NCBI GenBank assembly: GCA_964409365.1
Contig: CAYPCX010000002.1
Location: forward strand, 160,984-224,983
Reading direction: 5' to 3'
Source of the DNA: an uncultured Planctomycetia bacterium
GTDB taxonomy: Bacteria > Omnitrophota > Gorgyraeia > Tantalellales > Tantalellaceae
DNA: 64,000 bases
Part shown: positions 15,001 through 60,600 of the stretch, piece by piece
Position numbering within the stretch: position 1 is the first letter of the stretch
How the letters are laid out: each line of letters begins with the position of its first letter
Program-made: the position numbers and the translations under genes
The notes under the pieces: generated by a model
Seen by the model: the letters and a program-made list of their open reading frames with translations, nothing else
The model's database searches: none
Told to the model about the DNA's origin: nothing

Positions 15001-17530
15001 ACTTAACGAAAGTCTGGACAGCCTCACGGAGTTCTATAGAAGGTCATTGGAGACGCTCGAGAAGACTTCCGAAGAAGTGGATGAACGCCTACAAAGGACG
15101 CTCTTTTCGGGCCTGGGCATTGTCGAGTTCAAGCAGGGGGAAAGCCTTAGAGCCGAAGGGAAAGATGAAGAGGCCCGGAAAGAGTACAAAAATGCCGTGG
15201 GCCACCTGAAAAAAGGAGACGGCACGCTTTCCTCGCGTTCATATTTGGTCAAATCCCGTGTTCGCTCGGGGAGGGGGCCCGTGAATTCATTCAGGGCCCG
15301 GTGGACGGCTTTCGGCATGTGGAGGGAAGCATCCGCTTCCACCCTCACGAAAGAATCGTTGAAAGAAACGGGGTTCGCGGGAGCCGTTTTTGCCGTTTCC
15401 GCCGCTTTTGCGGTAGGCCTCTTCTCGGGTTTCATGGCCCTGAATTATTTCAGTTTTCCGTGGTGGGCCAGCGTAACGAGCGGCATCCTGGGAGGGATCG
15501 TTCTGGGAAGCGTCAGCATGTTCGTGCCCATGCCGGCGATCGCCGGGAAGCCGCCTAAAAAGGTCGCCGCGTTCGAAACGCTGGAGTTCGATATGGATAA
15601 ATTGAGCGCCGAAGACAGGGGATATTTCAACAGAGATAATGATATTACCGTAGGCGATGACTCGGTCTCCAGGGATGAGGTGACGCCGGAGAAAGTTGAA
15701 AAATTCAGGAAATATGTTAGAGACACCAGAGGGACAGAAAAGATAACGCACGCGGAGACGGGTGTTGTTTTTGAGGTCGATAAGGGTATTACTGACAAAT
15801 TGGGGATCGAGGGGGTTACGGATATCCTGAACACTTCCATGCGGAAGCTGATAGAGACCCATCTGGCAAGGGATGGACTTGAGGGAAGGCCCATATTCGT
15901 CTCCATCCTCGACTCCTCGCCACACCTCTTCGAAGACTGCGTTGAGAACGATTTCATAGGAATAAACAGATATATTATTGACAAGATAGATGAGATAGGC
16001 GCCGAAACGGCGAAAGACCTTCTTATCCTGGGCATAAGCCATGAATTATATCATGAAATAGGGCCCAAACCTGCGCTGGAACCTGCCGCATTGAGGTTCA
16101 GCCAGGATGTATTCAGGGATTTTGCCCCTGCCCGGCAGCAGGAGATCCTGGCACAACTGGGGAAAGTATGTGCGGATAGAAATCTGGCCCGGCTTACTTC
16201 CCGCCTGATGATAGGTATTGTGGATAGAGAAGATCTGAATAAGTTGCGCGAGAAGTATTCGGACCTGGAAAAGTATCCTGGTATGCGGGATATACAATTT
16301 GTGGAAGTTGCTGGAACGAACCTCGATGAAAGGGCCGCATATCTGGAGAGAATGCCGGGATTACCGGCCCGTATTATCGCCGATATGTCCTTGAGTGAAA
16401 TAGAAACCAATATTGGAAATATTACCAAGCAGCTCCGGTTACAGTCCTTCGTGATCATGTCCCCGTACCTGGCGGCTTTAGATGCCGAGGGTATCAGCAG
16501 TTTGAATGACGAAGATCTTAATAGCGCGATGAAGGCGATACGGGAAGCGTTGCCCGCAGAAGTGCCCTTTGATGTGGATAATATCCTGGGATCCCTTTCC
16601 GCGGCGTATGCGCCTGAGGCGGATATGTCCAAGCTTGCGGATAGCGTAAGCGAGAGGCCGGAGATCGAAGACGTCTGGGTACGGGAAAATGTAGGAGCGT
16701 TAAAGGCATACAGCGCTGACAGGAGCAAAGAGAACGCGAACAGGCTGTTGGCTTTACGGGCGAAATTCGGCGAATTTCTGAGCGGGAAGACACTTAAGCA
16801 GATCGGCCGGATCATGGTGAGGGCCCGCAACATTGCCCTGGCCCAGAGCATGGAAGACCAGGGTCTGGGCCTTCTTGGCAAGTTAAGGGGCAGGGAGGTC
16901 GTTCCGGAGGAACGGGTTTCCGGCCAGCAGGCCATAGTGGTAGATACACGCAGAGATTCAAAATTGAACTTGAAAGCGATGCTACCCACACTGGTGGACT
17001 TTGCCCGCAGGGATAACAAGCTGCAGGTATTTGCGATTACAGACGAAGAAGGCGATCTGATGCGGGATATGGCTGAAGTTCTTCCCGGTGTGGAGAAACC
17101 CGATAATCTGAAAGAAGTGCCAGGGTTGACGAGAGAAAACCTCATTGAAAGGCTTAAGGAATTAGGCATACCTATGTCGGCTGTTTCAATAGCTACCGGA
17201 GATTCCGCGTTCATAAAAGATAATGTTATACCTTATGTGAAGGCGGAAGGGGCGAAGAGCGCGAATTTCGTGATAGCCGGAAGACCCGATGATGAGGCGA
17301 CTAACAGGTTCGTTCCGTCAACGATGGTCATGGGTCTTGTCCAGCGTGCCGCGGACGAAAATAATACGCCCAGCATAATAGCGCTGGGTAAGGTCGCGGA
17401 GGCCCTGGAAGGCAGATTAAACGGCCTTTCGCGAGAAAAGCTTATACATTTTACGAGGATAACGAAGATAGATTTCGGCGAGATCAGGCAGCAGATAAAC
17501 GCGATTATCCAAACCGCCATCGCCCTGTAA
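2..17530 (+). CDS. Giant membrane-associated protein, 5'-truncated by the window edge (at least 5,821 aa). TPR-like and coiled-coil rich, with four clusters of TM helices and a C-terminal HExxH-containing module.
   Basis: The reading frame is open from position 2 (no in-frame stop before the tracker's GTG at 65) to TAA at 17528-17530. Composition is Lys/Glu/Arg-rich and helical. TPR-like stretches lie at ~9650-10180 and ~11200-11400. Hydrophobic TM clusters lie at ~3160-3370, ~4170-4340, ~10390-10590 and ~15360-15545. HELYH is at 16040-16054. Codon usage matches the neighbouring giant ORF. Confidence 0.8.
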   Translation, partial: YADADKLKKEIDKLTGELAEYVQKESADPLTGFHDVQRRWVSSNDEIEDRLTGNVRAALSGILVQKLGASEETAETAREVHMAVMEGRYKDARETMMQEGIGEERTVEILQAVIALMEHDYTEAEQALTKQDISESAAKEMVNRSKRARDALRVMTAVRGRRYDEAEYILVERYKIDATTAGSIIDGLKAGQSDAIIELTGVLKTSDVAARAETADEIKSAVREREALELEWKVYTEAAKREKERQNTMVRKNQDKRITIKEQSRIDAMIRSITGDDQKLANYAKNFFYFEASGLVQLALERAGLTWKDCLADRRNELKFLEQLSEVLHGQYGITLEDGFVFENILSDLRKKDLIWMPGIRKTRRDQIEQKDIVTFITEFIVPESRYYDPETLKDYMQAVKSDYFEKERDKKGAARWWHGVKMRAWLGLDFLDRGKGLAKEAAKLSVKKRQAEFTEKKRAAKMEKLAKEMGISVDELVKRYKDALSNAFLDTKGLDRPLTKVLGELTEDLDVESTVPGSGEELKNKLREKAHSEGAFKLLVWVERLDASGKNAEEFYEMAEAEAGKFDRETKTDKETDISAEDVGSTQRAVEERKITRYAHERGEHLRVARTAKRAELPVIELPVKKKEGEEEQAVREEEPPARDTTVELKFQAQEQKARETPEPDKAIVYGKEELGEKELPEVSAKRDDAVKDKRIDAQKKEVEASGEKQEVMDKATEIKVEIDGKEVIVPTVLLEETEGPAAAARAMVAAQARAYEKAHAAGLPVPGPPEESHVVFVGKAAKAFEELDEERQKEAVKEALSCEEVREAPEDLRKYVVVKDLTQVETTSEEGEEVGYHREYGVVAASPETASEMMQVWGEWTKSGREDAAAAAKKFNGLFGKRSGYADVLGGHFFYRSESARTLDEGSVKAWSLIDGEKRDAGFRRYTGQLAVIQQAGAAKLREHARQKERGEAPDRPDWDVVLANPYMRRIVESKDEVKIEFNAEGKVRVGESGWLDEKSFRDEVEKMEKGVKYPGIGAFELKGPDWWERVLNWVRNEGFGSRKWLSAEVIPIGGLTGTALIVTGSILTVLCSWWGIAAILLGVAVGMMLGNVRVSMVSVIGFFILLSKAFWDFGVFVFKDTLWKRGGVRILQSLREARTDEGLLREYYAPEEFSGWEKQDEANRDRSINAFSARIDTEFTVEEKNKLAGCGTSAELYRESAKILERDALHPDCSSARRERLLEQSYRLAMVSHLSDEEDKETLRVLARISGERGDYDNVIKFGEKALGPEREQIGFVGGVFAELRDRVGFIGIPPEAQDIAAVLYEAYTRKGKMRQREKIKKGMTRKALRQGVERVRAIPEEEKEEAGFWKRSYQNSLLTRRITGFFKKYSSWESFKGLLGNRHFQAGMGIFSLISWIAWAFGLKLLTAAAFLLLGKVVLAAACVIAVIDFIVLPFWRWYRAFSMDWATAGYRQEALMILRGEDVRTAVELAEQNQDEADQILDAFDSTLVSGAGRFFFWLAPFFFDEKTVSSILNSAEYYLNHIEDREAGMNRAEKLLRPLQTIGGRAFILRPGNRELRERLDLLEGLVRIRKGETDIVVAGRPLSGVTGEFFDDKGKLKDDINAETLGVLAQAFEAQAREEERETVIGKLEGLRDVFLPKPDEEEVVGGDGKVISEDKKAYVTGRDIRSEEKRKEFDSLNNMVARLRKGEKGEETIKGKEEGSKKATDARAGVEKREEVSVPEAEEEPAKPEIVRSAGELEEERKILEAKYRQAPGDMDTRKELVKVHRDLAKAYAKEEETAWFPRRWWRRLRGIRQWNLEEAVRLAREGDTYIDGGLAAERLIEHGIDHVYGAPWYRRFYEGRLIKDMGLIREALDTVRQKIESREPLSDEEKELMAVAFSNLQKLTAMLLDTRWARDLHHPRAGPIKVLLVEGLSPVLEFFASRAPTEEITAETIDAAKEMKNVVDEKLKEDLSNLRPWWWQRIGLRYGLWSLGRRLGKVQRAIDDAKRDQKVEGIDRTRDIEGFNDEKRKILEVTAKTRLHLLVINASRAKAIEKDPAEAWGFIVRVLGGDIDKCVGECTASGAIYTDHDKFMEMIENKVAEAEKEAGVEVPDIVKAMFLRRFEVAWAEANRRQYSDKQLEDMKKRLVELTTEERKRASKEITGEEERIKRLTKAPLGEIFIAPVPDPDLPDAFKAWLSQRREQFLEKAGNVILNKMLGEVEKLLKKQPEDIGLLALRKDLLRRIYVGTAMEEAKTEERDVVVTDRIEDFIDTCLFIMELSDDPAQREEVRDELRDLLSRMPPGERTKFSDKVQKRIKEARKEAERPDAMKKDIDRYAGFLGAAFYLVDEIPVKREIVQELFELAREKDDPGVLAIAEETGKSLLDLNFTGQPDQLKEFVKFLLLTYPEGDPDRAISVFDFLKGTIKGLRQKAIETARVDLDKVFRFETIRIIGEVLTDEANTGSLISMAPGPLPEKDRYLSSLHNLYISLEKTESDISAEKERLETEPARLQAFEDKVKGLVSVLEECKKRLGKKERTEKGIAVYTPGSIKETLHDTRREIELEARRGYWQALRNDAEASYREGENKAAADDEEGSEKAYEAAIETGKKMIKDGRETGYITGRGGVADDVDKETADMARDVNDRIILSYRGLIRSLERQGKPAEAAEKEFEMRHWAADNNNTLQNVPGDERVAAEKARERMIRMEPDKAELFRDAAKARSSLHEDTYKAARAKGKELDETRKKIDETAKEISASRKKADGIRQDIKQREAEEKTFRDRIKDIRARIAKNLAGGESILQQEPLFQEALKEQFRLEEKREELKKLREQLDEEEKKVEEQRKGKEDLEGTLEKQKLELELIEDRQKAESANMSVPIDFGEERDSFQRSTIDYIRAIELAEKDKQDIADGAAEGLVYLSGTPENTGFILGRVQQSLDSLDERIRDRKKRRLARQRLEKAKIGILQGLLETKEKSGREALMDEMRTVTEETAQVTVTVEGKPFTVTVDSVELLEFLTEEKDYASAELLVSVAGNNRENIPGVIARQKLLQRMHEDTGLAEEVDVGPDGSLFEEFAYATTKDEEEDIEDPFERGGKVNDKKNALARSLGGLFGFKELVDAVRARHAAETPWEKMDEGVQRELVADSLSFAALNSWIDTGGKVTPELKSELAGAEDFAELGSRIDREREAPEELRSELFRQETELAMLKSRVSRRMNVAEEIRAEADRVNLSVEARDRAKALGLYEEAIEAGLDSRSETMVHFQMGDTYERMKSRSNAIESYKKVLEKGGDEDEVLRNRAYRHLIDLYGELDMPLDVLTLHESRARSLHEMAEKAEDLRIKRDALGKALVAVDRALALEPVDGTSLALKARILNSQADLFRDEGRMNRAFRICEEVLFRPDANLAWWSRLYNGIFQRAKMKAVSRTEEAELEARKVRAEIHAMKGNEREAYRDAQRIEDMGEPTVKTHMIAADTVQKPIPGLKFLGMFLKYGWPVILTAVLAFLIPQLGAMGSFLGKLPGWASFLSRWMPWISITVFAGVGEVGSLWARRNKAQLEKAKEHLLRAVEAEPKNAEANDRLFEVMKELKDHEGIEEQCKKEEEVIKDDRTKRDRLDVLKRRRAVALLRRQQDRIRECVDDPEAAGEVKEAIEEARKIVKDTTDTEGVENEIKGLGSMMPMRRPPRTRMVSVMGFWVRRTRDPGEHNTHELQLASLLQALGRQDEARKRMEELVLREDVSENTREEAKKALAEDYKARAAEETEESKAIDMYSEALARDPNNAEALLERGILLSKRTGFEDLARDDIARALEMGQPLEKEKADEGYRFLEGYYFEHGDYESWLDVREKTRVKWEGFEAGRPGIAEAQKVNTEADSMVENIGKWGRARSRIAELERRKERRGEAFEAEYEAEIRSLRGIRNPLEGRGDDLDLVNRLLALAQKFANEGETDKAIDILNAVVEAARGKPLEVRARFVLAGVYEKADRGGELDAEIEDLKKLEDGMSANEKVGLMLMEAARRAKADTGKGIREGFEILREVIRLGLIHNDKIAGEWFAAMDRLINAHRAWQQREDKEETDEYSDRALHTNISYTMTVIGEESQKGPAHRVILSPENVRKMSDIILSDDMPVVSRDVAESLLFEGNELVPDESRVAVFEHLGQRFQKAITEGESFDKDSYRELFSKWRARDRFKDVCGKGLGLIYASKGSSIFAWWYLGRKGLRESGMTAFNDYMRARRYESLIGPWYPNAIVHAVRNYEKALRGGIRQREIHMRLAGLYGRLNNEKKVFEHSEKVRELSETDKEKAAAETELANAYFNRIKGWWFGLRRRRNAIALFDDAEKMLDLTGDRGLDEETAKVVIGKLGSAEKVLKRSYTGDGFLWRKKAWRWVTGSPAPRVPRDVRIRGMYLKGQCYLALNTEEGTREAWEQFDEINKIDGRDERGLMGLRECALRDGMENEAMRYHEQALALGSSLAQEESKDMAAIYKNKADKGKDITVRMPLEQEPVPLTPLDCLERAASLDPEDEELKLVLAEARFENGEVQKSLEVLNALRDKEEPGGFEGLRERTQKAGKDGAVIAVRAQELNDRISGRVAREEERDRITGKYPVKGGVEIYTRTVEQLAEAEGKARDIDVKVREIATARAEIVSKGETVSPEQLDEWRRDVIAFGLPGRITKSDVEKMGTDELLLQLEERKNELARAARVHEQKLSGIDISAVPSVVAKRLLNLAQSVREAGKPHQALVIARSAEKIKGVSPDIGIDIKFTMASCHADLNQFKEAKDIYGDLQKRPDSSGIRARLALMGLEDNKARSGISKLEQDKTITDADRTARIKTVRIERDRAIIKLGEGLPGEFANLAEEEKTKFRENADLNKELIQGFRRFFEVLRGRGGSEDIAAIIEQLSNIASIFNLGTLSQDVNFKENAEIGNFILSELNMILSNESLKSEVDMEAGHFKKLAGALNNMAIYSMNTAVMIALIDFFLNSDGKFKGILFNVLSTQKKAFTQEQSFKVADRLDGRLRDRKETGLNESLDSLTEFYRRSLETLEKTSEEVDERLQRTLFSGLGIVEFKQGESLRAEGKDEEARKEYKNAVGHLKKGDGTLSSRSYLVKSRVRSGRGPVNSFRARWTAFGMWREASASTLTKESLKETGFAGAVFAVSAAFAVGLFSGFMALNYFSFPWWASVTSGILGGIVLGSVSMFVPMPAIAGKPPKKVAAFETLEFDMDKLSAEDRGYFNRDNDITVGDDSVSRDEVTPEKVEKFRKYVRDTRGTEKITHAETGVVFEVDKGITDKLGIEGVTDILNTSMRKLIETHLARDGLEGRPIFVSILDSSPHLFEDCVENDFIGINRYIIDKIDEIGAETAKDLLILGISHELYHEIGPKPALEPAALRFSQDVFRDFAPARQQEILAQLGKVCADRNLARLTSRLMIGIVDREDLNKLREKYSDLEKYPGMRDIQFVEVAGTNLDERAAYLERMPGLPARIIADMSLSEIETNIGNITKQLRLQSFVIMSPYLAALDAEGISSLNDEDLNSAMKAIREALPAEVPFDVDNILGSLSAAYAPEADMSKLADSVSERPEIEDVWVRENVGALKAYSADRSKENANRLLALRAKFGEFLSGKTLKQIGRIMVRARNIALAQSMEDQGLGLLGKLRGREVVPEERVSGQQAIVVDTRRDSKLNLKAMLPTLVDFARRDNKLQVFAITDEEGDLMRDMAEVLPGVEKPDNLKEVPGLTRENLIERLKELGIPMSAVSIATGDSAFIKDNVIPYVKAEGAKSANFVIAGRPDDEATNRFVPSTMVMGLVQRAADENNTPSIIALGKVAEALEGRLNGLSREKLIHFTRITKIDFGEIRQQINAIIQTAIAL

Positions 17531-17546
17531 CACAAAGGAGGTGGCG

Positions 17547-17580
17547 AAGGGGTGGGTACCCCTCGGGGCGCCCACCCCTT
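17547..17580 (+). terminator. GC-rich hairpin (10-bp perfect stem AAGGGGTGGG / CCCACCCCTT) 17 nt after the gene-1 stop; possible terminator or RNA structure
   Basis: The inverted repeat is read directly. It is not followed by a clean T-tract, so intrinsic-terminator status is uncertain. Confidence 0.35.
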
Positions 17581-17670
17581 GAAGTGTACACACCCGAAGT
17601 GTACACACCCGATGTGTAGGCACGGTTAATGATCCAAACCGCCATCGCCCGGCAACACAAGGAGGTGGCG

Positions 17671-17705
17671 AAGGGGGGTGCCCCTATGGAGCACCCCCTT
17701 CTTAT
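17671..17705 (+). terminator. Second GC-rich hairpin (AAGGGGGgTGC / GCACCCCCTT) followed by the T-rich ttcttatat; possible intrinsic terminator
   Basis: The inverted repeat has one bulged G and a T-rich 3' tail. It belongs to the duplicated copy of the gene-1 3'-end module. Confidence 0.4.
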
Positions 17706-17774
17706 ATACACACCCGGTGTATACACCCGATGTGTGAGGATGGTTAAGGTGGAAAATAGTTGGATAATAGGGTA

Positions 17775-17802
17775 TTGACGTATTCTGAAAATGTGGTAAA
17801 AT
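17775..17802 (+). promoter_or_regulatory. Putative sigma70-type promoter P1 with extended -10 (TTGACG, 16-nt spacer, TGgTAAAAT)
   Basis: TTGACG at 17775-17780 and TAAAAT at 17797-17802, with TGG immediately 5' of the -10. It lies in an AT-rich intergenic region upstream of the 18039 ORF. Confidence 0.45.
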
Positions 17803-17810
17803 GAGATATC

Positions 17811-18034
17811 GGTTAGGAAAATAGAAAGCCTAGTTAGATAGAGGTTAGGGTGAAACAGGGTATCAGAAGATTAGGTTTTTTATTTTATCTTTGAAAAGTT
17901 AAGGTACAAAATAGCCAGAAATAACACATTGACTAATGTTAAAAATGTGTTAAAATAGGTTATATGTGGTTAGGCTAAAAAAAAGCCAATAAGGTTAGGT
18001 TAGGGTTAGGTTGAGTAAGTAAAGGCAGGTTAGG
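17811..18034 (+). repeat. Dispersed and tandem GGTTAGG (TTAGGG-like) heptamer repeats in the leader of the 13,091-aa gene
   Basis: GGTTAGG at 17811, 17843, 17968, 17993 and 18028. The tandem run ggttaggttagggttaggtt lies at 17993-18012. Related GATTAGG/AGTTAGA copies occur at 17831 and 17871. Confidence 0.6.
17929..17956 (+). promoter_or_regulatory. Putative sigma70-type promoter P2 with extended -10 (TTGACT, 16-nt spacer, TGtTAAAAT), a near-duplicate of P1
   Basis: TTGACT at 17929-17934 and TAAAAT at 17951-17956. The core aaaatgtgttaaaat is almost identical to aaaatgtggtaaaat in P1. It lies ~85 bp upstream of ATG 18039. Confidence 0.45.
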
Positions 18035-18038
18035 TATT

Positions 18039-21000
18039 ATGGACGCTTGGCAAATAATAAAGACTTGGCAAACAAAAAGACGCTTGGCAGATCATGACCG
18101 CTTGGCAGAGCATGGCCATGATGGCTTGGCACAAAAGAAGGCTTGGCAAACTATGAATACAAAGAACGCTTGGCAAAGTGATAAGAAATATTACATAGGG
18201 GAAGAAGATTCCATACAGGGCGTAGCGACTTGGCGTAAGCGCTATGCCTTTTTTCTTAAAATAGTCAGCATTATACTCATAGCTATATTCACCCACCAGC
18301 AGATCGGGTGGACGCAAGACGGACAACCGGTCTGGGCGCAAGCCAAGCTTTACAATAACACCTACTCCCCGGGCAATGTGAATGTCGACGGGATAGACGT
18401 GCCATATGACATAGCCAACAAGACCGAGGTCGTCATCAACGGCGGCAAGGAAAAGGTCATACACATCCAGGACGCGCACGCCTCGCTCGCGGCGCAGGAA
18501 TCCATAGTCAAGCTCCTGGATTCGCTGGTAAGCAACTATGACCTGAGCCTGATAGCCCTTGAGGGCGCCGAAGGCTACCTGGATACGTCCATTTTGAGCA
18601 CCTTCCCGGACAAGGATATCCGTGACGATACGGCGGCCCACCTGATGAGGGAAGGCCGGATGAGCGCCGGCGAGTTCTTCGCCGTCACGCGCGATACCGC
18701 CGATATCTGCCTTTACGGCGTGGAAAAAGACGAGCTTTACCGCAAGAACCTGGAAAGCTTCCGCGAAGTCGCCGCCGAACGCGCGAGCCTGGTAGGCCAT
18801 ACCAACGCGTTCCTCAGGCAGCTGAAAGCCCTGGAAGAGAAGATATATTCGGACGACCTGCGCCTTTTGAACGATAACGCCACCCTGCACAAGGACGGCA
18901 AGATCAGTTTCCTGGATTACTGGAAGAAGATCAAAAGCCTGGCCGAAAGGTTCAAGATAGATACAGGCGAATACGGTCAGCTTAACAGGCTCCTGGAGAC
19001 GATCGAGCTGGAACAGGAGATAGACTTCACCGAGGCTAATATCGAGCGGCGCAAGCTTGTCGACGAACTAAGCGGCAGGATGAACGAAAAAGAGCTCGAA
19101 GGCCTGGTACTGAAATCGGTGGCTTTCAGAGAGAACAAGGTTTCCCAGGCCGATTTTCATAATTACCTGGTCTCTCTGGCCGAGAACCACGAGGTCCCCC
19201 ACGAGGGATACGCGAACCTCATCAAGTTCGCGCAGTACGTCGCCCTGTACGAGACGATCAACATAATCGGGCTGTATCACGAGGTAGCCCTTTTCGAGGA
19301 CGCCATAAGGGAAAAGCTCTACCGCAACGACGACGAGCGCCGGCTGTACGAAATAGCCATCATGACGTGCATGCTGAAACGGCTGTATAACATGGAGATG
19401 ACCAATGGCGATTACGCTTTCATCAACGCTTACCGCAAGAGTTACAATGCCCGCGAGTTTGCCGGGTTCGCGAAGGACAAATGCCGCAAATACAAGGTCG
19501 CCATCGAAGGCGATTATGACCTTTCCGAGATGCTTTCGGGCATGGATGGAGCGATAGAGTTTTACAGGCTGGCCGAGAGCCGTGACCAGACCATGCTGGC
19601 CAATACCGTAAGGCACATGAGGGCCGAAGGTAAGCACGTAGCGGCGCTTATCACCGGTGGTTACCACACAAAGGGCCTTACGAAGCTGATGAAGGAAAAG
19701 GGCCTTTCGTATCTCGTCATAGCCCCCAAGTTCGAGGAAGGGAAGGAACGTCCGTACATAGCGGTCCTCACCGGCAAGAAGAAGCCTTACCAGAAGCTTC
19801 TCGAGTCCGGCAAATACCAGCTGGCGGTGGAGGCGTATTTTTCGGCGGAGAACTTCGAGGAAAAACTCGTAGATCTCAAAGAGATCATTTCCCGGAACCT
19901 TGCCATAAAAATGGCCGAGATCAGGGATGACAAGAAGATCCGGGGGGCGGAGGAAAGAAATTCCAAAATACAAGAGGGTTTGGACCGGACGAGGCGGTCC
20001 TGGATAGAGCTTTTCAGTCAAAGGTATGAGGCGCACTTTGGAGGGCTGGAGGGCCAAAAGCGGCTGGAAACAATGAACGTGAAACCGATCACCCCGGAGG
20101 AATTCGCGCGCACCATTAATGATGGCATCAAACTGAGCTATAGCTATGGAACAGATATAGTAATAGTGTTTCATGAAGATGAAGCTGAAGCTGAAGAAAA
20201 GGCTGTCATGGCGATAAAGGGACGCGACGGCCAGTATGAACAAGCCGATGAAGTTACCCCCGAAGACATCAAAAAGCTGAGCCCGAGCTCCCGGAGATTT
20301 TCTCCTGTGAAGAGTGCCAGCGAAGAAAAGGCAGGTAAAGAAGGCGGGGAAGTGCTGTATGAAGCCGACCTGTCGACATCCAGAGGAGAGCCGGTGGATA
20401 GAAAACTTCTTAAGAGAGCTTTTTGGAAGTCTCGTGGAGTTCCTCCGATTCCGTGGGGCAGGGTCTTCGAGAAATACGGACTAGAGTACGAAAAGGATTC
20501 CTTTGAGGACCTTAGAGATAGTCTCCCGGAAGCGCAAAAAGCGGACAGGGATCTAAATAAAATACTTGAGCTTGAAGAGATCGACAGACTTACCGACAGC
20601 CATATAGAGATCCTCAGCGGCGCGTTCGATACTATTACTTCCGGGTTGTATGAAGCCCATGTTTACAGCCAGCAGATCAATATTAAGCGGGGTATGAACA
20701 GCTTGCTCGAGCTTACCCCGGAAGGTGAACTGGAACTGGACATCTGTCTTCTGCGAGCGATCGATAAAGAGGTGAAAGGAAATGCGGAGAATATAGGAAA
20801 ATATATTAATGCCCTGGCATGGATGCTCGAGCATGAGCTCTGGCATATCCTTATCAGGTCCGATGACGTGATCGCGGAAGAGCTTGCGGTTATCGCCCTG
20901 AATGTTCATGACTTCCTTATCATGGAACCGGAGACCCAGGAGGCGCTTCTCTGGCTTATGGACAATGCGAATAAGAACGACATAGACGGCAAGAACTTCG

Positions 21001-27000: not shown

Positions 27001-30000
27001 ATCCGGGCGCGGTCTTTGGGATCGTCCAGGAAGTGGTCGCCAAGCTCGAACTTATCGATAATTATAGAAGGCAAGTCAAGGGGATGATAGATGACTTGAA
27101 TCAGTCTTTGAAAGGGCTCTCTCCGGAAGAGAGGGAGGCGAAGAAGGAACAGGCCGCGGAACTTCTTACCTTGGATGTGGATAAACATTCCCAGGGGAAC
27201 ATGGAAGAACATATAGATGCGATAGTGGAAAGGGTGAACGCCAGGCGTGACGCGATCAACGAAGCGGTCGCTGAAATAAAGGGAACGGAGAAGGTCGAAA
27301 TGGCACCGCTGGTGGCTCCGCCGCTTAGGGCGCCGCCCGTTGCGGAAGAGCCGGCCCCTGCCCCCGCAGAAGAGCCGACCCCTGCCCCCGCGGCAGAACC
27401 GACTTCTGCTCCAACGCCACACGCACCAGCTGAACCTTCAGCACCGACACCGCCACCGGTGCAACCGCCCGCGCCTCCGACAACACCGCCTGCGGCGTCA
27501 ACACCGCCCGCACCGGGAGCCGACGGGCTTAACCAGACCGAACGCGACCTGCTTAACGCGGCAAATACAGTAACGGACGGGAAGATAACTTCCTACAGAA
27601 AAGGCCAGGTCGATGCCATGCGCCTCCTTAAACAGGGTACGTTCGTGGAATTAAGAACAGGAGGCGGTAAGACGCTTACCCTTGGTGGGGCCGCGCTTTC
27701 GCGGTTCAAGGAAACAGGGGAATCGGTCTTTATTATGACCCATGAAGACGACCTGACCAGACAGGCCATGGAAAAGGACCAGATGGGAGAGATCCTAAGC
27801 AAGTGCGGGGCCAAAACAGGGTTTATAGTCAAAGATGCAAGAGGTAATGAACGAGGGTATATCTACGAGAACGGTACAGGAAGATTCGCGAAAGAGGTGG
27901 AAGAGGTTTACGAAAACTGCGATATCATATACGCGAAATGGGATATAGTCGTCCACCGTCATCTGCGCGAGAAGATAGGCGGCGATGACGTCAGAAAGGT
28001 GCTGAGCGGCAAAAAGCGTTTTAACCTGTTCGACGAGGCGGACCTCATGCTGGTCTTCGGCTCCGCGACGCCGGCCGTTATCCAGGGCGATGAGCTGGAA
28101 GGAACGGACAAGCGCCTTCGCGTGCGCGAGATAATAGACAGGGTGGCCGCCGAGATGGTGGAGAAAAAGGAAGGTTATCACGAGCGGGAAGAGAGCGAAG
28201 AAATATTCTTAGACTACGACGGCAAGACCAAAAGCAAGATAGACGATGCTTTCAGCGGGTACAGGAACGATCAGGTGATAATGAACATGGTGGAGACGGA
28301 ATGGGACTTTTTCCTGATCGACGCGATCAAAGCCCACCGTTTTTATAAAGAAGGAGAGCGTTACAAGATCGGCGAGCCGGACGAATCCGGGAACAGGGAA
28401 GTGATCGTCATTGATGAGCAGACCCAGGCTCCCAAACCGGGAATGACGTTCGGTGAAGGCCTGCACCAGGCGGTAGCCATAAAGGCCGCGGCGGAACACA
28501 AAAACCTCAGCATTAATATCCCCGCTGAGACGTATACCGGCATGTCGGAGACCATAGTGCAGTTCCTGAACAGCGACGTCGTCAGCGATTTTGCCGGAGC
28601 CAGCGGTACGATGGAGATCCCCAGGCTGGAAAGCATATATCCCGGCAAGAAAGTCGAACAGGTCAAAGGTATAGACGAAAAGCTGAAAAATGAAGGATAT
28701 AAAGGTTTTGAGACCAAGGCCGAAAAATGGCAGGGTATCCTGGAAAGCCTGAACAGGCGGATCGCCGGGAATCACCCGGTCCTGATCAAGGTCGAATCGG
28801 ACGTCGAGACCGAAAAATTAAGGTACTTTATCTGGACGGGCGTTCTCGGCATGACATATGACCTTGATCCGGAGCTGAGGGAAAGACTGGAGAAGGATAA
28901 AGACCTGCAGGACATGATACGGGAGGCAAGAAAGAACAGGCAGCTTGTAGACCAGCTGAGAGAGAAGTTCATAGAAAAAAGCGTTATTATCAACACGGCT
29001 GACGCGAGGCATCCCGGGGAATTCGCCAGGGCGATCGATCAGGCGGGGTACGCGAACGTTATCACTATAGCCACGAACATGGCTCATAGAGGAATAGACA
29101 TAGAGATAAAAGGCAAGTATCTTAACGCGGACGGGACCGAGGGTGTTGAAGTACCCCCCGTGGAAGAATTGTCGCCGGGGCTGCACGTCATATCGGCTTA
29201 TCTCGACGAATCGGAGGCCTTCGAGATCCAGACGATGGGACGCGCCGACAGGGGCGCGCACCAGGGGTCATGGGAAGGCCTGTTCTCGCTCCCGGAAACA
29301 AAAGGCCGTTTTGGCGCCGAGAGGACCGAAAGGATATTTATCGCGCACGAGACGCTTTTAGAGCAGCAGATCAGCGGGTTAAGGGCTGCCGTGAAGAACG
29401 ACGACAAAGACGCGATAAAAGGACTCATAGGCGAGATCAGAGATCGTATCGTGAGCGAACAGAACGAGAATGACAGGAAAAGGCGAAAGCATGAAGACCG
29501 CGTTTTCGGTTACCAGGAAGAACTTTTGCATTATGGCGAAGTAATAGCCGAAAACACAGAGTCTTTCAGGATCTTTCTTGTCGATATAAACGCGGTAGAC
29601 GCGGCTACAGCTGTTGAGATGCGGGATGAAGATGTGGAGGAATTAAGAAAGATATTCCTGGAACTGATCAGGAAGGAGCTGCAGAAGTTCCAGACCGAGC
29701 AGCAGATCAGCAGGAACCGCCTGGACAGGCTGGCTGCCGAGGCGGCGATCGGCTGGAAAGGGGCCTTCGGCCAATACCAGAGCGAATCGGACAAGATCAT
29801 CAGCGCGGGGCAGAACCTTGACGACAGGCTGAATAACGTTATAGAGGATTTGAGTATAGCAATAGCTAATAGCATGAAACGCCCCCTTTCCGAGGTCAGG
29901 GAAACGGAAAGGAGGCCGCTTATCTCGGATAAAGGGCTTCAGCAGGTAAAGGCTATCTTCCTGATAGTCGGGTTGTGCGCGTTCCTCGCGTTTGTCGGGG

Positions 30001-36000: not shown

Positions 36001-39000
36001 CACCCTCTGAACAGAGGGTGCTCAGCGAGATCAACGCGTGGATGGTAGCAAAGGCCAAGATGAAAGAATGTGACAGGAGGCAATCGGCCCTCCAGTCCAG
36101 GTTGAGCTCTCTGGGAGTGAATGTCGGAGAGATCAGCGAGAAAGACATGGACAAGTTATTGGATGGTCTGGAGGGTATGACCCCGGACAAGATCATTGCC
36201 ATGTTCGAGGCAAACGGCATTGTAGATAAAGGGGATAAACTTTCCCTTGACCTGCTGAGGGAGGAAGCGCGCAGGCGGGCGATGAGATGGAAGATCGAAG
36301 AAGCGCGCAAAGGGCCGTGGGTCTATTATCTCGGCGTGAGTTTCGGCATGCCTTATAAGGTCAAGCCGCTCTTCGGCATGGAAAGAAAAGGCGACCTCAA
36401 CAATTTTGAGCTGACCGTTCCCATGGCCAAGATACAGAAGAAACAGCGGGATATCGCCTTTTTGAGGGCGGTGAAGAGCCACAGGGAAGAAAAAGAGCTC
36501 CTGGAAGAGGTTATCCCCCAGATGGAGGAGATGATCGCCGCCATGGACGCTTATCTCGACGATCTTAACCAGGGCGTGAGGGACGTAACGGGAGCTTCAA
36601 GGAAGGGAAGGTTAGAGGAAAACGCCCGTAACGAGTTCATCGGCAAGGCGGAAAAGGTCTGGAGGACATTGAACAGCCTCAAGAAAGAGATGGCGAGGAC
36701 CATAGAGGATTATAAGATACGGCTTGAAGACCTTGAGGAATTCGTCGCTCCTGAGGAGGAAAGAGAACTGGTGCCCGGAAAGTACACCCGTGACATGGCG
36801 AAACGCGACGCTATTGTCAAGGCCGAAAAAAGCGGGGCCCTGGCTTCGGCGGAAGCCGATGAAGACAAGGCGCGCAGACTGTATCAGGAAGCCAGAGAAA
36901 AGCCGGCCCTTCTCATTACAAGGCTGGGGTATACGGGAGGAGGACCGAAGAACATAGAAACCAGTTTCCAGTTAAAGGGCCCGGGATGGAAGCATCTTGA
37001 GAAGTTCCTGGAGCTGGATGTCAGGATAGCGAAGCTTCAGAAGAAATATGTGAAAGAAAGACTGCCGTATGAAGTCCAGAAAGCTTACAGGAGGTGCCTG
37101 AGCGCGAAGGCGCGGGTAAAGAACCTGAGGATAGCCGTGGAAAAATGGGAAACGGCGCTTAAAGCCGCCGAAAAGCGCGGCGAAGTGGGTAAAGCAACAA
37201 AGATAAAATCCGAGATGGGAGAATGCGAGGTATTGCGCCGCACTGCTGAAAATAATCTTAAGAACGCCAGGATGGCCCTCGAGCATCTTACAGGCAAGAA
37301 GTTCGAGGAGCTTGATCCTTCTTCGCTGGATAAGCCGCTGAGGAAGCCCAACCCCAACCTGCGGCTGGAGATACTCAAGCTCAGGAAACAGCAGGCAGTG
37401 GAGATACTGAAGATGAGGGAGGACAACAGCCTGATCACCGCCCTGTTCAAGATGTGCTTTTCCAGTTTCAAGCAGGGAGAGGACAAGGATAATTTCGGCC
37501 TTACTTTTTCGGGAGATGTTTTTGAGTTCATCCAGAACGTGGATACCAGCCCCGAAGGTTTCGACGCTTTCCTGAAGAAGCAGAAGGTCCTGATAAGGAA
37601 GTGGGACAACCAGATCGACATGGAACGGGCCAGGGTCCGGGACTTTAAAGCGCAGAACGAAGCCGAACTTGACGCAGCAAGAGGGAACCTGAAGACCGCC
37701 ATTGCCGAAGTCGAGGCCGACAGGAAATATCTCGACAGCCTGTACAGGCTGTCGCTGGATCTCAGGTATGCCGGGGTGAGCCTGTACAATGAGATACTTT
37801 TCATGGAGGCCAAGCTTCAGAATTCCGTTAACAGCATGGAAGACGCGGTATACAGGTATCTCGATGCCCTTGATGATTGTGGTATGACCATGAACGCGGG
37901 CGTGATCCTCAGGAATTTTGCCCAGCGGTCCGGTCTGGCCCCGTCCGCTTATAACGCGTGGCGCGCGAGGCTGGAAAAACGGCTGTTCTTCTACAACATG
38001 GGTCTTTCCGTGCGTTTCCAGATCTCCAAGTTCTTCGGCGCCGGTTCCCCGATAAAGAACCAGCTGGCCGCCCGCGACAACGCCATTTTCTGGGTTGACA
38101 GGTTATTGCACAAGATGGCCGGGGACGCCCAGTGGAAACAGTTCAGATATTACGACCCGGTAACCGGCCGTGCCAAGCTGAAGGACGATCATATAAACGC
38201 GTATCTGTACAACCAGAAGCTGGTATCACACATCGACATGATGAACGACCTGATGAGGACGGAAGAAGAGATCAGAAGGGCCGAGGCCAGGGCCGGCATA
38301 GAGCTGGGTAAATACAGGCCCAAGCCGACGTTCCCGACAATGCTTATAAACATCAAATTCAATCTTTTCAAGGACCCACTCAAGCAGGAGATAAAGGGTC
38401 ATATCGTAGAGCAGGAAGAAGCCCGCATGGCCGAGGAGGAATTGCGCGACGAGTCCAGGCTCGTGAACGTCGCCACGCAGTATGAAAATTCCAGACAGCA
38501 GGAGAACAGGTTAAAAGGGGAAATAAGGGAACTGGATATGGTGATCAGTTCCGCGGAAGATACCATAAAGCACCGCGATGAGACATCGTCCGAGAGAGGG
38601 ATCTACAGGCTCAAGACACTGAAACTCGAGAAGGAAAAGCAGCTGGCCAGGGCGGAGATGATGACGAAGTTCTTCCAGGGACAGCTCAAGGAAGAGATGA
38701 AAGGTCGCGCCGTGTTCGTCCTGGAAGACGGAACGCCGGTGGACGTCACTAAGATCGATGATGCCCAATTTAAGCGGTTATGGATCAAGTTCAGGAGAGG
38801 GTATTCGGCCCTCAAGGACCTGGATGCCGCTGTAAGGGAGTGGGAGGAAGTAAGCGCCCAGGTGGTCGCGGCCCACCCCGCCCTCAAGAGGATGAAGGCC
38901 CTGGTCAAGGAAGCGGAAGGCAATTACAAGCTGGCGGGTTTCTGGATGAAATTCAGCCCGGATGTAAGGATATGGTTCGGCCTGCCGCTTTCTTCGCCGT

Positions 39001-57395: not shown

Positions 57396-57481
57396 GTAAA
57401 TCTTTACCATGTAATAAGTTATGTATTTATCCACATCTTCTCCCGGATATAGTTAGGTTTTAAAATAGTTAGATTAGGTGG

Positions 57482-57510
57482 TTGACATTATTATATAATA
57501 TGTTAATATA
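57482..57510 (+). promoter_or_regulatory. Candidate promoter region for the third giant gene (TTGACA at 57482-57487 in a very AT-rich stretch; -10 ambiguous)
   Basis: ggTTGACAttattatataatatgttaatatataaac. Several TATAAT-like hexamers occur at non-ideal spacing, and GTTAGG-like motifs lie immediately upstream (57453, 57473). Confidence 0.25.
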
Positions 57511-57693: not shown

Positions 57694-60600
57694 ATGAGGC
57701 AAAACAGAGCATTTCTTAAGATCATAGCGGTTATCGTAGCGGGTGTTTTCCTGCACCAGCAGATTGTGTGGGCGGCGGGGGATATGACAGGTCCGGTAAA
57801 GCCGGTTCCCGCGCGCGCCAATACAGCCCGTTCGGAAGTCGTTCACGATATTCGCGTTCCCAGCGACCTTGCCCAGCTGGACGAGATCGGCATGAACGGC
57901 AGCCGAGATCTCATAATAAATATCCAGGATTGCCATTCTTCGCTTTCCGCCCAGTATTCTATCGTGGAGATACTGAAACGCCTTCTCCAGGACTACAGCG
58001 TTGATGTAGTGGCCATAGAAGGCGCGACAGGATATGTCGACACGTCCATCCTGAAGACCTTCCCCGATACCGGTATCAAGGAGAAAACGGCCGATTACCT
58101 GATGAAAGAAGGCAAGCTTTCCGCGGGCGAGTTCTTCACGGTCACCTCGAACGAGGATATCGCGCTGTACGGAGTGGAAGATAACGGTCTTTACCGGGAG
58201 AACGTGAAAGTCTTCCGCGATATCTATTCGAAGAACCGCGAAAGCATAGACACGCTCGATCTTATCCTGGAAAAGCTCAGGAAGAAGGAAGACAAGGTAT
58301 ATCAGGAGGACTTGAGCCGCATGGTGTATAAGTCCCGCCTTCACCGCGACGGCAAGATGAGCTTTGATGTCTACTGGGATTTTCTCGAGGAGATTTGCAG
58401 GGAGAGGGGCGTTCCCACCGGGGGATACCCGGCCATCAACGGTTTCATGGACTGCGTCAGCCTGGAAAGGACGATAGGCTTCAGTGAAGCCACTTCCCAG
58501 AGGAAAGAGCTGATCGATGAGCTGATGGAAGGGGCCGCGAAGGAAGATCTTGAAGAAATGGTGCTTAAGTCCCTTTCGTTCGAGAAAGGAAAGATCACGG
58601 AACTGGCGTATCACACCTGGCTTCTGGACCTCGCCGCGAGAAAAGGCGCCCGGACGGAAAAATATACGCAGCTTTACAGGTATGTAGACTACATCGAACA
58701 TTATCAGCGGCTTAACATCATCGGTCTCCAGAAAGAACTGGATCGTATAGAAGAGAAAGTGCTTGAGGAGCTGTTCTCCTCGCAGGAAGAGCGAGAACTT
58801 TACAGGCTGGTCACCCTGGTAGAGCTTGTGAGGGCGCTTTTTGAGATAAAACTTTCGGGAGAGGACGTATCCCGCCTGTCCAGGAACATGGATAAAGTAA
58901 CGGTGGATGAGGTCATGAGCTTTATTGGAGGTAAGGGCACAAATGACGATCAGGATGCCGTCCTGGATATCAAAAGGCGTTTGGAGATGCTTCTCCCGGA
59001 AGCTAAAAAGGCGCTCAGGTTCTACAAGCTGGCTGAGAAGCGCAACAAGGCGATGTTGGCGAATACGGCATCCACGATGCGCAGAGAAGGCAAGCATGTA
59101 GCCGCCCTTATCTCGGGCGGACACCATTCCCGCGGCCTTACCGAACTCATGAAAGAGAAAGGCCTGTCCTATCTTGTCCTCATGCCTAAATTCTCTTCTG
59201 ACAGGTCCCGCCCGTATATCGCGGTCTTGACGAAAAAGACCGGCCCGTACAGAGAGCTTGCCACGAGCGGCGCGTATGACCTCGCGCTCGAAGCTTATTT
59301 CGACAAAGGGGACCTCGACGCGCTGGAGGAGACGCTGGCCTTCGCCGTGGGGCAGAGCGTCCTGGCCGGGAAGTATACAAAGGTCGAGATAGGAGAGTGG
59401 CTTAAAGCTTACGAAAAGGCTTACGAGGAGCTCGAAGGAAGCGAAAGAGAGCAGGCGCTGGCCGCCAAGGCGATAACGCCGGAAGACCTCAGGGAACGTC
59501 TCGAGAGGCTGGATGTCGTAAGCGTGGATGATGGCGCGTGTGAGATCAAGATAAACGGCAATAGTTACCGCGTGACCGGCGAGGATGTGGAACTTATACA
59601 GCCCGCCATAGAGGGTTTGGAGGTAAGGGCAAAAAAATACCCGGTCCAGGCTTTCAGGATGATGAAAGACCGCTTCGAAAGGGCGAAGGCGGCATGTGAG
59701 GAAATACTGCCCGCCGCGTTCATAGACACGGTCTCAAGATCGGCCGAGAGAGGAAGGATCTTCAAGAACACGATCTCAGTCCTGAAAGCCGGTGCCGGGA
59801 CAGGCTTGACCGAGGCGCTGGGCGGCGTAGCGCTTGCCTGGGCGGCAAGAAAGCAGCGTTCTATACCGATCGCGGGAACGGGTGACCGCGTCCCTGGCGC
59901 ACCTGTATCGTTTGATGATGTAAAAATGATGTCTCCCGACAAATTCCAGGAACTTGTATCTTTTTATAAGTTTCGGGTCGTTTCGGGAAGAAAACATGCC
60001 GTGGTCCTGGCGCATGACGACCTTGATTTCGTGATAAAGATGAGGAACGAGCCGGTCCCGGAAACCGGTGAGGGAGATATAAACGGATCGTTCTACAACT
60101 ACGGGAAGTACGGGAAGATGTCCGGCGTCGGCAGGGCCGAATATTCTATGGCAGGCAATTTGACGGTTTCCCTGGAGAATGGGGTCCAGCTTAGCGATGA
60201 AAATGCCGTACTCCAGGAAAAGACGGATTCATTAGCCGAACTGATTCGCGAGGATGTCGAAGCGGGAAGGATAAAAGAAGCCAAGAATAAGCTTGACGCT
60301 TTCGCGGAAGTGCATGAAAGTGTCGCCGGAGAAGGTCTGGTCGACAAACTCTTCCTGACCGGTCCCGGTAAAAGTACGAGGGAATACTTTACGAACATAG
60401 GGCGGAGCAGGAGGAGCGGGAAGTGGGTCCACGTCGATACCGCCGACCTTACACATGAAGTGCCCCCGGCCGGTGTTCCTGAAGGCGGACTTGATAATGT
60501 CAGAAGCTGGTTCCCTTTCAAAGATAACCCGGAACTGGCAGATCATTTTGACAACCAGATCATGCCGCGGCTGGCAAAACTCGGCAGTAAACTTGACAGC

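Follow-up and report, generated by a model that had tools for sequence, protein, structure and literature searches.

Introduction

PrgY and Tiki, of the TraB/PrgY/GumN/Tiki group (PF01963), are membrane-tethered, extracytoplasmic proteins. Catalytic residues have been reported for EreC of the erythromycin esterase (Ere) family (E47, H50, E78, R261, and H289; PMC7979712), for Bcr135 (H85 and E113; PMC6254334), and for RRSP of MARTX toxins (E3900, H3902, E3930, and H4030; PMC6254334). EreC (PMC7979712) and RRSP (PMC6254334) are both metal-independent, and RRSP is an endopeptidase (PMC6254334). Here, we analyzed a 64-kb stretch of DNA from a metagenome-assembled genome (MAG) of Omnitrophota (contig CAYPCX010000002.1, positions 160,984 to 224,983 of the forward strand; hereafter, the window), in which three giant open reading frames (ORFs) lie on the + strand, and focused on the domain with which the second and the third of them begin (the head). 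The head is best read as an exported, catalytically competent Ere/TIKI-like hydrolase at the N-termini of Omnitrophota giant proteins, with a probability of roughly 0.7.

West-Roberts et al. (2023, bioRxiv 10.1101/2023.11.21.568195) found C39 and S8 peptidase domains at the N-termini of other Omnitrophota giant proteins and stated that, apart from these, such regions "generally lack identifiable domains". Published accounts describe the giant ORFs as poorly conserved. TraB or Tiki is mentioned neither in West-Roberts et al. (2023) nor in the other giant-gene preprint, and a full-text literature search found no paper linking Omnitrophota with Tiki, TraB, or erythromycin esterase.

Shared head of genes 2 and 3 and its candidate active site

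Gene 1 enters the window from the left and ends at 17530, with about 5,821–5,843 amino acids inside the window. Gene 2 occupies 18039–57314 on the + strand (13,091 amino acids), its first ATG being at 18039 and an alternative ATG at 18153, and gene 3 starts with the ATG at 57694 on the + strand and continues beyond the right edge. Genes 2 and 3 share a module of approximately 600 residues at their N-termini. BLASTP aligned residues 72–689 of gene 2 with residues 7–599 of gene 3 at 37% identity over 625 residues (E = 5e-139), both regions being in frame with the giant ORFs, and this was the sole similarity between the two genes at E ≤ 1e-5. At the same threshold, the portion of gene 1 inside the window showed no similarity to gene 2 or gene 3. 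The initial annotation of this DNA had correctly recognized a common N-terminal module in the two genes and placed it at 18246–19790 and 57712–59240. The identity of ~55% that it gave was too high, 205 of 516 positions (40%) being identical and 63% positive between these two regions (E = 2e-133). Its boundaries also had to be revised: 18246 falls on an Ala codon within the ORF, gene 3 begins at 57694 and not at 57712, and the module extends about 100 residues further than described, to approximately 20105 in gene 2 and 59490 in gene 3. The four motifs that it quoted were all found as written, with the exception that gene 2 reads MSAGEFF and not LSAGEFF. The features of the two heads are as follows.

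18039–18233, + strand: gene 2, N-terminal extension ahead of the signal, with 6–8 CTTGGCA ("AWQ") repeats inside
18234–18314, + strand: gene 2, predicted signal peptide or signal-anchor RKRYAFFLK-IVSIILIAIFT-HQQIGWT/Q (n-region, short h-region, conserved c-region; slash, putative cleavage site here and below)
18396–18758, + strand: gene 2, N-terminal half of the alpha/beta core, defined by modeled strands and helices and by invariant residues, with SAGEFF and LYGVE inside
18471–18479 and 18561–18563, + strand: gene 2, catalytic candidates D145-x-H147 and E175, in the N-terminal half of the core
18759–19541, + strand: gene 2, all-helical lobe (~260–300 residues) between Glu and Arg, modeled with local confidence (pLDDT, see below) mostly of 83–96
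19542–19778, + strand: gene 2, C-terminal half of the core, with N-T, AALITGG-Y-H543, SYLVIxPKF, and RPY inside
19581–19583 and 19665–19667, + strand: gene 2, catalytic candidates R515 and H543, in the C-terminal half of the core
19779–20105, + strand: gene 2, conserved C-terminal extension of the shared module, from the BLASTP alignment to residue 689; low model confidence
57694–57774, + strand: gene 3, start and predicted signal peptide MRQNRAFLKIIAVIVAGVFLHQQIVWA/A
57775–59490, + strand: gene 3, head domain, from BLASTP and structure prediction
57928–57936, 58018–58020, 59041–59043, and 59125–59127, + strand: gene 3, catalytic candidates D79-x-H81, E109, R450, and H478, respectively

The candidate catalytic set comprises D145-x-H147, E175, R515, and H543 in gene 2 and D79-x-H81, E109, R450, and H478 in gene 3. 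In both genes, the distances from His to Glu and from Arg to the second His are 28 residues each, and the first of these distances is also that of Bcr135 (H85/E113) and RRSP (H3902/E3930). Both sequences contain the 2His/2acid motif of the TIKI superfamily, namely an acid one or two residues from a His, a Glu about 26–28 residues later, and a late second His, and both have the basic residue 24–28 positions before the second His that is a further trait of the superfamily (R515/H543 and R450/H478). The corresponding residues of Escherichia coli YbaP are H41, E67, R228, and H252, with spacings of 26 and 24. Across 155 diverse heads, the D, H, R, and GG-x-H residues were invariant and the Glu was found in all but one (154/155), and the candidate residues were also kept in distant stand-alone relatives. 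The conservation of the three residues proposed in the initial annotation as metal ligands (the His of D-x-H, the Glu, and the His of GG-x-H) is thus borne out. The metalloprotease mechanism put forward with them is not implied by this pattern, since EreC and RRSP are metal-independent.

Predicted fold

AlphaFold2 (AF2) models of the heads were obtained with a predicted local distance difference test (pLDDT) score of 82.1 and a predicted TM-score (pTM) of 0.70 for gene 2, and with values of 87.5 and 0.78, respectively, for gene 3. In the gene 2 head model, the pLDDT was below 50 from residue ~515 of the model. Both models have an alpha/beta core, the strands of which are split by an all-helical lobe of about 300 residues. 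Each candidate His and Glu is situated at the C-terminus of a strand or just past it, and the helix before the strand of the last His contains the candidate Arg.

The two models were searched with Foldseek against 350,542 PDB chains. EreC (6xcs) ranked first for the first model (E = 0.05, probability of 0.80), and 3b55, 2rad (BcR135), 6xcq, and HopBA1 (5t09) were also retrieved. For the second model, 6xcs was top in probability and in query TM-score, and 3b55, 2rad, and 5t09 were found again, together with ChaN (2g5g). Among these, 3B55, 5T09, and 2G5G are described as TIKI-superfamily structures in the study of RRSP (PMC6254334). We give weight to this result because a very small superfamily recurred in both searches.

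Weak sequence similarities point to the same superfamily. Among 73 family members compared with the 24,736 models of Pfam, the commonest matches below threshold were DUF5682 (10 members) and PF04187, "Haem-binding uptake, Tiki superfamily, ChaN" (9 members); the best E-value among the nine was 0.013, and the gathering threshold of PF04187 (27.7 bits) was not reached. In the relative P0306, the PF04187 match (12.8 bits) fell on the C-terminal GxxH region. TraB_PrgY_gumN (PF01963) did not match the heads of gene 2 or gene 3, and its alignment with the family consensus (9.5 bits, E = 1.1, against a cut-off of 26.8 bits) fell on the C-terminal R...GGxH region. Since the AF2 models, the Foldseek matches, the weak Pfam matches, and the catalytic residues agree, the head very likely belongs to the TIKI superfamily (Ere/TraB/Tiki/ChaN) as a new, divergent family that is most similar to the Ere branch. 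The resemblance to TraB/GumN/Tiki that had been suggested at the outset therefore holds at the level of the superfamily, and the nearest branch appears to be Ere-like and not TraB/GumN. Judged by its sequence, the head falls outside the membership of PF01963, PF05139, and PF04187.

The helical lobe of gene 2 contains an EF-hand-like helix-loop-helix, LHKDGKISFLDYW, at 18885–18923 (residues 283–295), in which the Ca-ligand positions 1 and 3 are non-acidic. An EF-hand/troponin C identity (PDB match with E = 0.0016; EF-hand_7, E = 0.0077) was considered and rejected as a local helix-loop-helix resemblance, the Ca-ligand positions not being conserved.

N-terminal signal and stand-alone relatives

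The N-terminal segments of the 155 heads contain basic residues, with K or R at consensus position 12 in 148 of them, followed by a hydrophobic run of 11–12 residues that ends in F22 (148/155). After this run, the sequence H-Q-(Q/D)-I-(V/G/T/A)-(W/F)-(A/T/S/G)-Q-x-G-x-P-x-W is found, the conserved c-region having the pattern F..HQQ.(V/G)WA/QGG.PVW. The putative -3 position was V, G, T, A, I, or S in 146 heads, and the putative -1 position was A, T, S, or G in 145. By these column statistics, the segment has the properties of a Sec signal cleaved by signal peptidase I, that is, a basic n-region, a hydrophobic h-region of ~10–15 residues, and small residues at -3 and -1. Five stand-alone relatives of 428–582 residues have textbook predicted cleavable signal peptides, with predicted cleavage sites such as AVA/EE, AGA/QE, and SYA/ET, followed by a related IW.KR motif.

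The element that the initial annotation had described as a single transmembrane helix with an HQQIxW end is indeed conserved; from its sequence, it is more likely a Sec signal peptide (V/G-W-A/Q) than a transmembrane helix, an uncleaved signal-anchor being a possible alternative. Because the -3/-1 rule is obeyed in the heads and the stand-alone relatives carry signal peptides, the head domain is most likely extracytoplasmic.

Two of the stand-alone, predicted-secreted homologues, in loci L083 (4164–5480, 438 amino acids) and L085 (6001–7287, 428 amino acids), have a shorter helical lobe. They lie on closely related contigs with the gene order leuS-comEA-comEC-X-bamD-lptE-holA, where the homologue X is placed between comEC and a block of bamD-like, lptE, holA, and rpsT genes. 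The remaining stand-alone forms (485–582 amino acids) occur in different contexts, one of them directly upstream of a gene of more than 3,800 amino acids.

Evidence against the assignment and alternative explanations

Several results weigh against reading the head as an exported TIKI-superfamily hydrolase. The initial annotation had named a lack of TraB/Tiki similarity in profile searches as grounds for abandoning its proposal, and formally this is what was observed, as nothing significant was obtained in Pfam, NCBIfam, or PDB sequence searches. Neither the heads of genes 2 and 3 nor sets of 34 and 73 family members, the consensus, the spliced core, and eight stand-alone relatives gave a match above the Pfam or NCBIfam thresholds. 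PDB sequence searches with the full profile and with a core-only profile retrieved no TIKI proteins and no Ere chain. The erythromycin esterase family PF05139 appeared in no Pfam table at E ≤ 10, the tables for the 34- and 73-member sets comprising the 25 most frequent families. The structural matches to TIKI proteins had E-values of 0.05–0.85 and TM-scores of at most 0.26, without any of them reaching significance, and comparable Foldseek scores went to hexokinase, TsaB, and long helical proteins.

The topology of gene 2 raises a further contradiction. A SecA-like ATPase (SecA_DEAD, SecA_PP_bind, P-loop_SecA) with an intact Walker A motif (ELRTGGGKTL) and a DEAD-type Walker B motif is located at residues 3190–3694 (27606–29120 in the window), and it is followed by approximately six predicted transmembrane helices at residues 3973–4331. 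Since no transmembrane or hydrophobic segment was predicted in gene 2 between the signal and residue 3973, the SecA-like ATPase would share the side of the membrane with the exported head. In relatives, between zero and five membrane segments were predicted between the head and the SecA-like module by a crude hydropathy analysis with inconsistent results. The SecA-like domain was detected in 6 of 177 family members by single-sequence phmmer, the domains being highly divergent and many of the proteins truncated. Any model for the export of the giant proteins must resolve the topology of the head relative to the SecA-like ATPase.

These results leave some room for a coincidental resemblance to TIKI and Ere, in which case we would be dealing with a new alpha/beta-plus-helical domain that has another chemistry or a purely structural role. 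All database similarities were below significance, and Foldseek ranked unrelated folds at comparable E-values. The comparison with TraB by hhalign, for which the target was a narrow enterobacterial YbaP alignment containing close relatives only, gave probabilities of 1–7% and, with greedy settings only, P ~ 0.01 at best; in the greedy alignment with E. coli YbaP, the RN and GxxH motifs were in register, and the Glu was placed in another register than in the motif-based mapping. However, five TIKI-superfamily structures recurred across two independent Foldseek searches, the two exact 28-residue spacings equal those of EreC, and the secondary-structure context of the His, Glu, and Arg residues fits, so that we regard coincidence as improbable.

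Equally, the head might have a TIKI-like fold and be non-catalytic, serving as a binding, anchoring, or docking module that, for example, brings the giant protein to a secretion machine during its synthesis. The heme-binding protein ChaN is among the recurrent weak matches to the head, the superfamily also includes the inactive C2 domain of Pasteurella toxin (PMT), which has neither the catalytic motif nor activity (PMC6254334), and the c-region of the signal and the following PVW motif are conserved beyond what a generic signal needs. Nevertheless, the full Ere-type set is retained across divergent heads and stand-alone relatives at the frequencies given above, as expected for an active site and not for a scaffold, which makes a purely non-catalytic role unlikely.

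Family size and distribution

The heads do not owe their similarity to a local event. A family profile built from 34 sequences was searched against 1.84 billion cluster representatives (clusters at 50% identity) and matched 9,889 of them at E ≤ 1e-3 and 6,793 at E ≤ 1e-30; the family thus reaches far beyond genes 2 and 3, to which the initial annotation had considered that it might be confined. Of the best 150 of the 9,889 proteins, nearly all have the start of the match in their first ~80 residues, and the longest is 7,834 amino acids. A word-indexed search found 39 relatives, and those that were named are all "hypothetical" proteins of Candidatus Omnitrophota MAGs without a Pfam domain. In contigs representing one genome per species, at least 483 head copies were found, all in Omnitrophota MAGs, including bins labeled "uncultured Planctomycetia".

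No stop codon interrupts the ORF between the head and the edge of the retrieved DNA (up to ~3,900 amino acids) in 61 of 75 loci, and the in-frame stop upstream of the head match is 8–106 codons away in the 75 loci, the N-terminal extension varying in length. Several genomes carry three or more head copies, and on at least three other contigs, two heads lie 29–42 kb apart on the same strand, in a tandem layout as in the window. Co-resident copies elsewhere are mostly 44–58% identical. The head of gene 2 is 55–61% identical to heads of other species, and that of gene 3 is 53% identical to the relative P0027 and only 39% identical to that of gene 2. On this sequence comparison, the heads of genes 2 and 3 are old paralogues; each is closer to heads elsewhere than to the other, which excludes a recent duplication. 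The position of both copies at the starts of adjacent same-strand genes might have pointed to a recent local duplication or to gene conversion between the neighbors. This explanation is rejected, as the two copies are 39–40% identical, closer heads exist in other genomes, the family has thousands of members, and co-resident copies elsewhere also differ from each other (mostly 44–58% identity).

In one low-coverage MAG (locus L002, 10001–16995), the head forms an 855-amino-acid ORF that overlaps by 22 nt with an ORF of 1,483 amino acids carrying SecA-like domains, which is followed by a further ORF of at least 2,046 amino acids. Either frameshifts have broken up a giant gene at this locus, or its parts are genuinely unfused.

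Proposed function

As part of the preferred reading, that of an exported Ere/TIKI-like hydrolase, the head is probably built of a signal peptide or signal-anchor, an enzyme-like domain of ~500 residues whose alpha/beta core is probably parallel, and a tail of ~100 residues. It would be exported first, ahead of the giant polypeptide, and in the periplasm or at the surface, an ester or a peptide bond might be hydrolyzed by a His-activated water, in the manner of EreC and RRSP. By analogy, the His and Asp would act as general base and orienting acid, respectively, and the Arg would stabilize the oxyanion. The head could plausibly act in cis, in the processing or release of the giant polyprotein, in a manner comparable to C39 and S8 heads, or in trans, on a substrate of the envelope or of prey. 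These two roles are deemed the most economical because the position of the head at the start of the giant protein is fixed, and we favor, on the same analogies, a putative peptidase or esterase whose substrate would be the giant protein or an immediate partner of it. The initial annotation had suggested that the two proteins may share a sorting, processing, or anchoring step, which we retain as a hypothesis.

A bolder proposal is that the head is a universal "starter unit" of Omnitrophota giants, an exported hydrolase that cuts the precursor or frees it from its anchor and that is possibly coupled to a SecA-like motor in cis threading the N-terminal ~3,000 residues out. We consider this doubtful; if true, it would represent a dedicated self-export and self-processing system for proteins of 10,000–100,000 residues.

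The head is an unannotated, very large domain family, in which a known enzyme superfamily very likely appears in a new architectural context. Contrary to the picture of poor conservation, a strongly conserved head (~10^4 clusters at 50% identity) marks the start of giant genes, and it can serve as a sequence marker to find and delimit such genes in fragmented assemblies. With a size of ~550 residues, typical of a soluble domain, it offers a handle for the first biochemistry on the giants, and the exported Ere/TIKI-like hydrolase provides a concrete hypothesis for the processing of giant proteins or for attack by them.

DNA around the gene starts and other features of gene 2

The region between genes 1 and 2 contains two tandem duplications. 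At 17504–17750, a duplication of ~125 nt comprises the last codons of gene 1, a GC-rich hairpin (17547–17580), and palindromic GTGTACACACCCG units, and from its sequence, it looks like a duplicated terminator region. At 17774–18034, a duplication of ~155 nt upstream of gene 2 carries two promoter-like extended -10 sites (17775–17802 and 17929–17956). Upstream of gene 3 (57440–57510), one promoter-like site with an extended -10 was observed at 57482–57509. The window contains nine matches to GGTTAGG, seven of which are clustered at 17811–18034. In the 350 nt upstream of head-bearing genes at 62 related loci, GTTAGG occurred 21 times against 1.8 expected and AGTTAG 31 times against 2.3 expected, the background being mostly coding DNA and the enrichment indicative only.

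The start of the gene 2 ORF (18038–18240) contains 6–8 copies of CTTGGCA(A/G), mostly 17–27 nt apart, which read "AWQ" in frame. If the ATG at 18153 were the true start, most of the CTTGGCA copies would lie in the 5′ leader. CTTGGC and TTGGCA were not enriched upstream of related genes. At 18231–18258, exactly at the start of the region coding for the signal peptide, the coding strand contains a terminator-like hairpin, GGCGTAAGCGCTATGCC, followed by TTTTTTCTT, which may be due to chance or may be an attenuator. An Rfam search of the window gave no match.

Further downstream in gene 2, residues 6325–6419 (37011–37295) matched an OEP/TolC-like outer-membrane efflux protein in two stretches (E = 1.1e-8).

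Comparison with known systems

With the Ere family (EreA–D and Bacillus cereus Bcr135/136; PF05139), the head, as modeled, shares a two-lobed build in which the major lobe is alpha/beta and the minor lobe helical. The set E47/H50/E78/R261/H289 of EreC corresponds to D145/H147/E175/R515/H543 of gene 2 with the same 28/28 spacings. However, the head has no significant sequence or profile match to Ere. The orienting acid is at -3 in EreC and at -2 in the head (D-x-H), as in RRSP, and the helical lobe of the head is larger by ~150 residues (340 residues from Glu to Arg, compared with 183 in EreC). Unlike Ere, the head comes after a predicted export signal and is joined to a protein of 10^3–10^4 residues, and a macrolide substrate is not expected.

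The TraB/PrgY/GumN/Tiki proteins have the same order of motifs, namely a strand with His, a strand with Glu, an R-N helix, and a strand with G-x-G/G-H. They differ from the head in having GTxH where the head has QDAH, in spacings of 26/24 instead of 28/28, and in the absence of the large helical insertion.

RRSP (DUF5) of MARTX toxins resembles the head in its TIKI fold, which is a prediction in the case of the head, and in its "2His/2Glu" site, with E-x-H, a Glu at +28, and a His, and it is likewise set within a very large multidomain secreted protein (PMC6254334). In contrast to the head, RRSP is an internal effector that is freed by a separate cysteine protease domain, has an N-terminal lobe for membrane localization, and lacks a signal peptide; no sequence similarity between the two was detectable.

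The C39 and S8 heads of other Omnitrophota giants are unrelated to this head in fold. They are alike in that a giant protein begins with a signal and an adjacent hydrolase, a putative one in the present case; for C39 and S8, cleavage of the giant protein itself or of other substrates has been proposed (10.1101/2023.11.21.568195).

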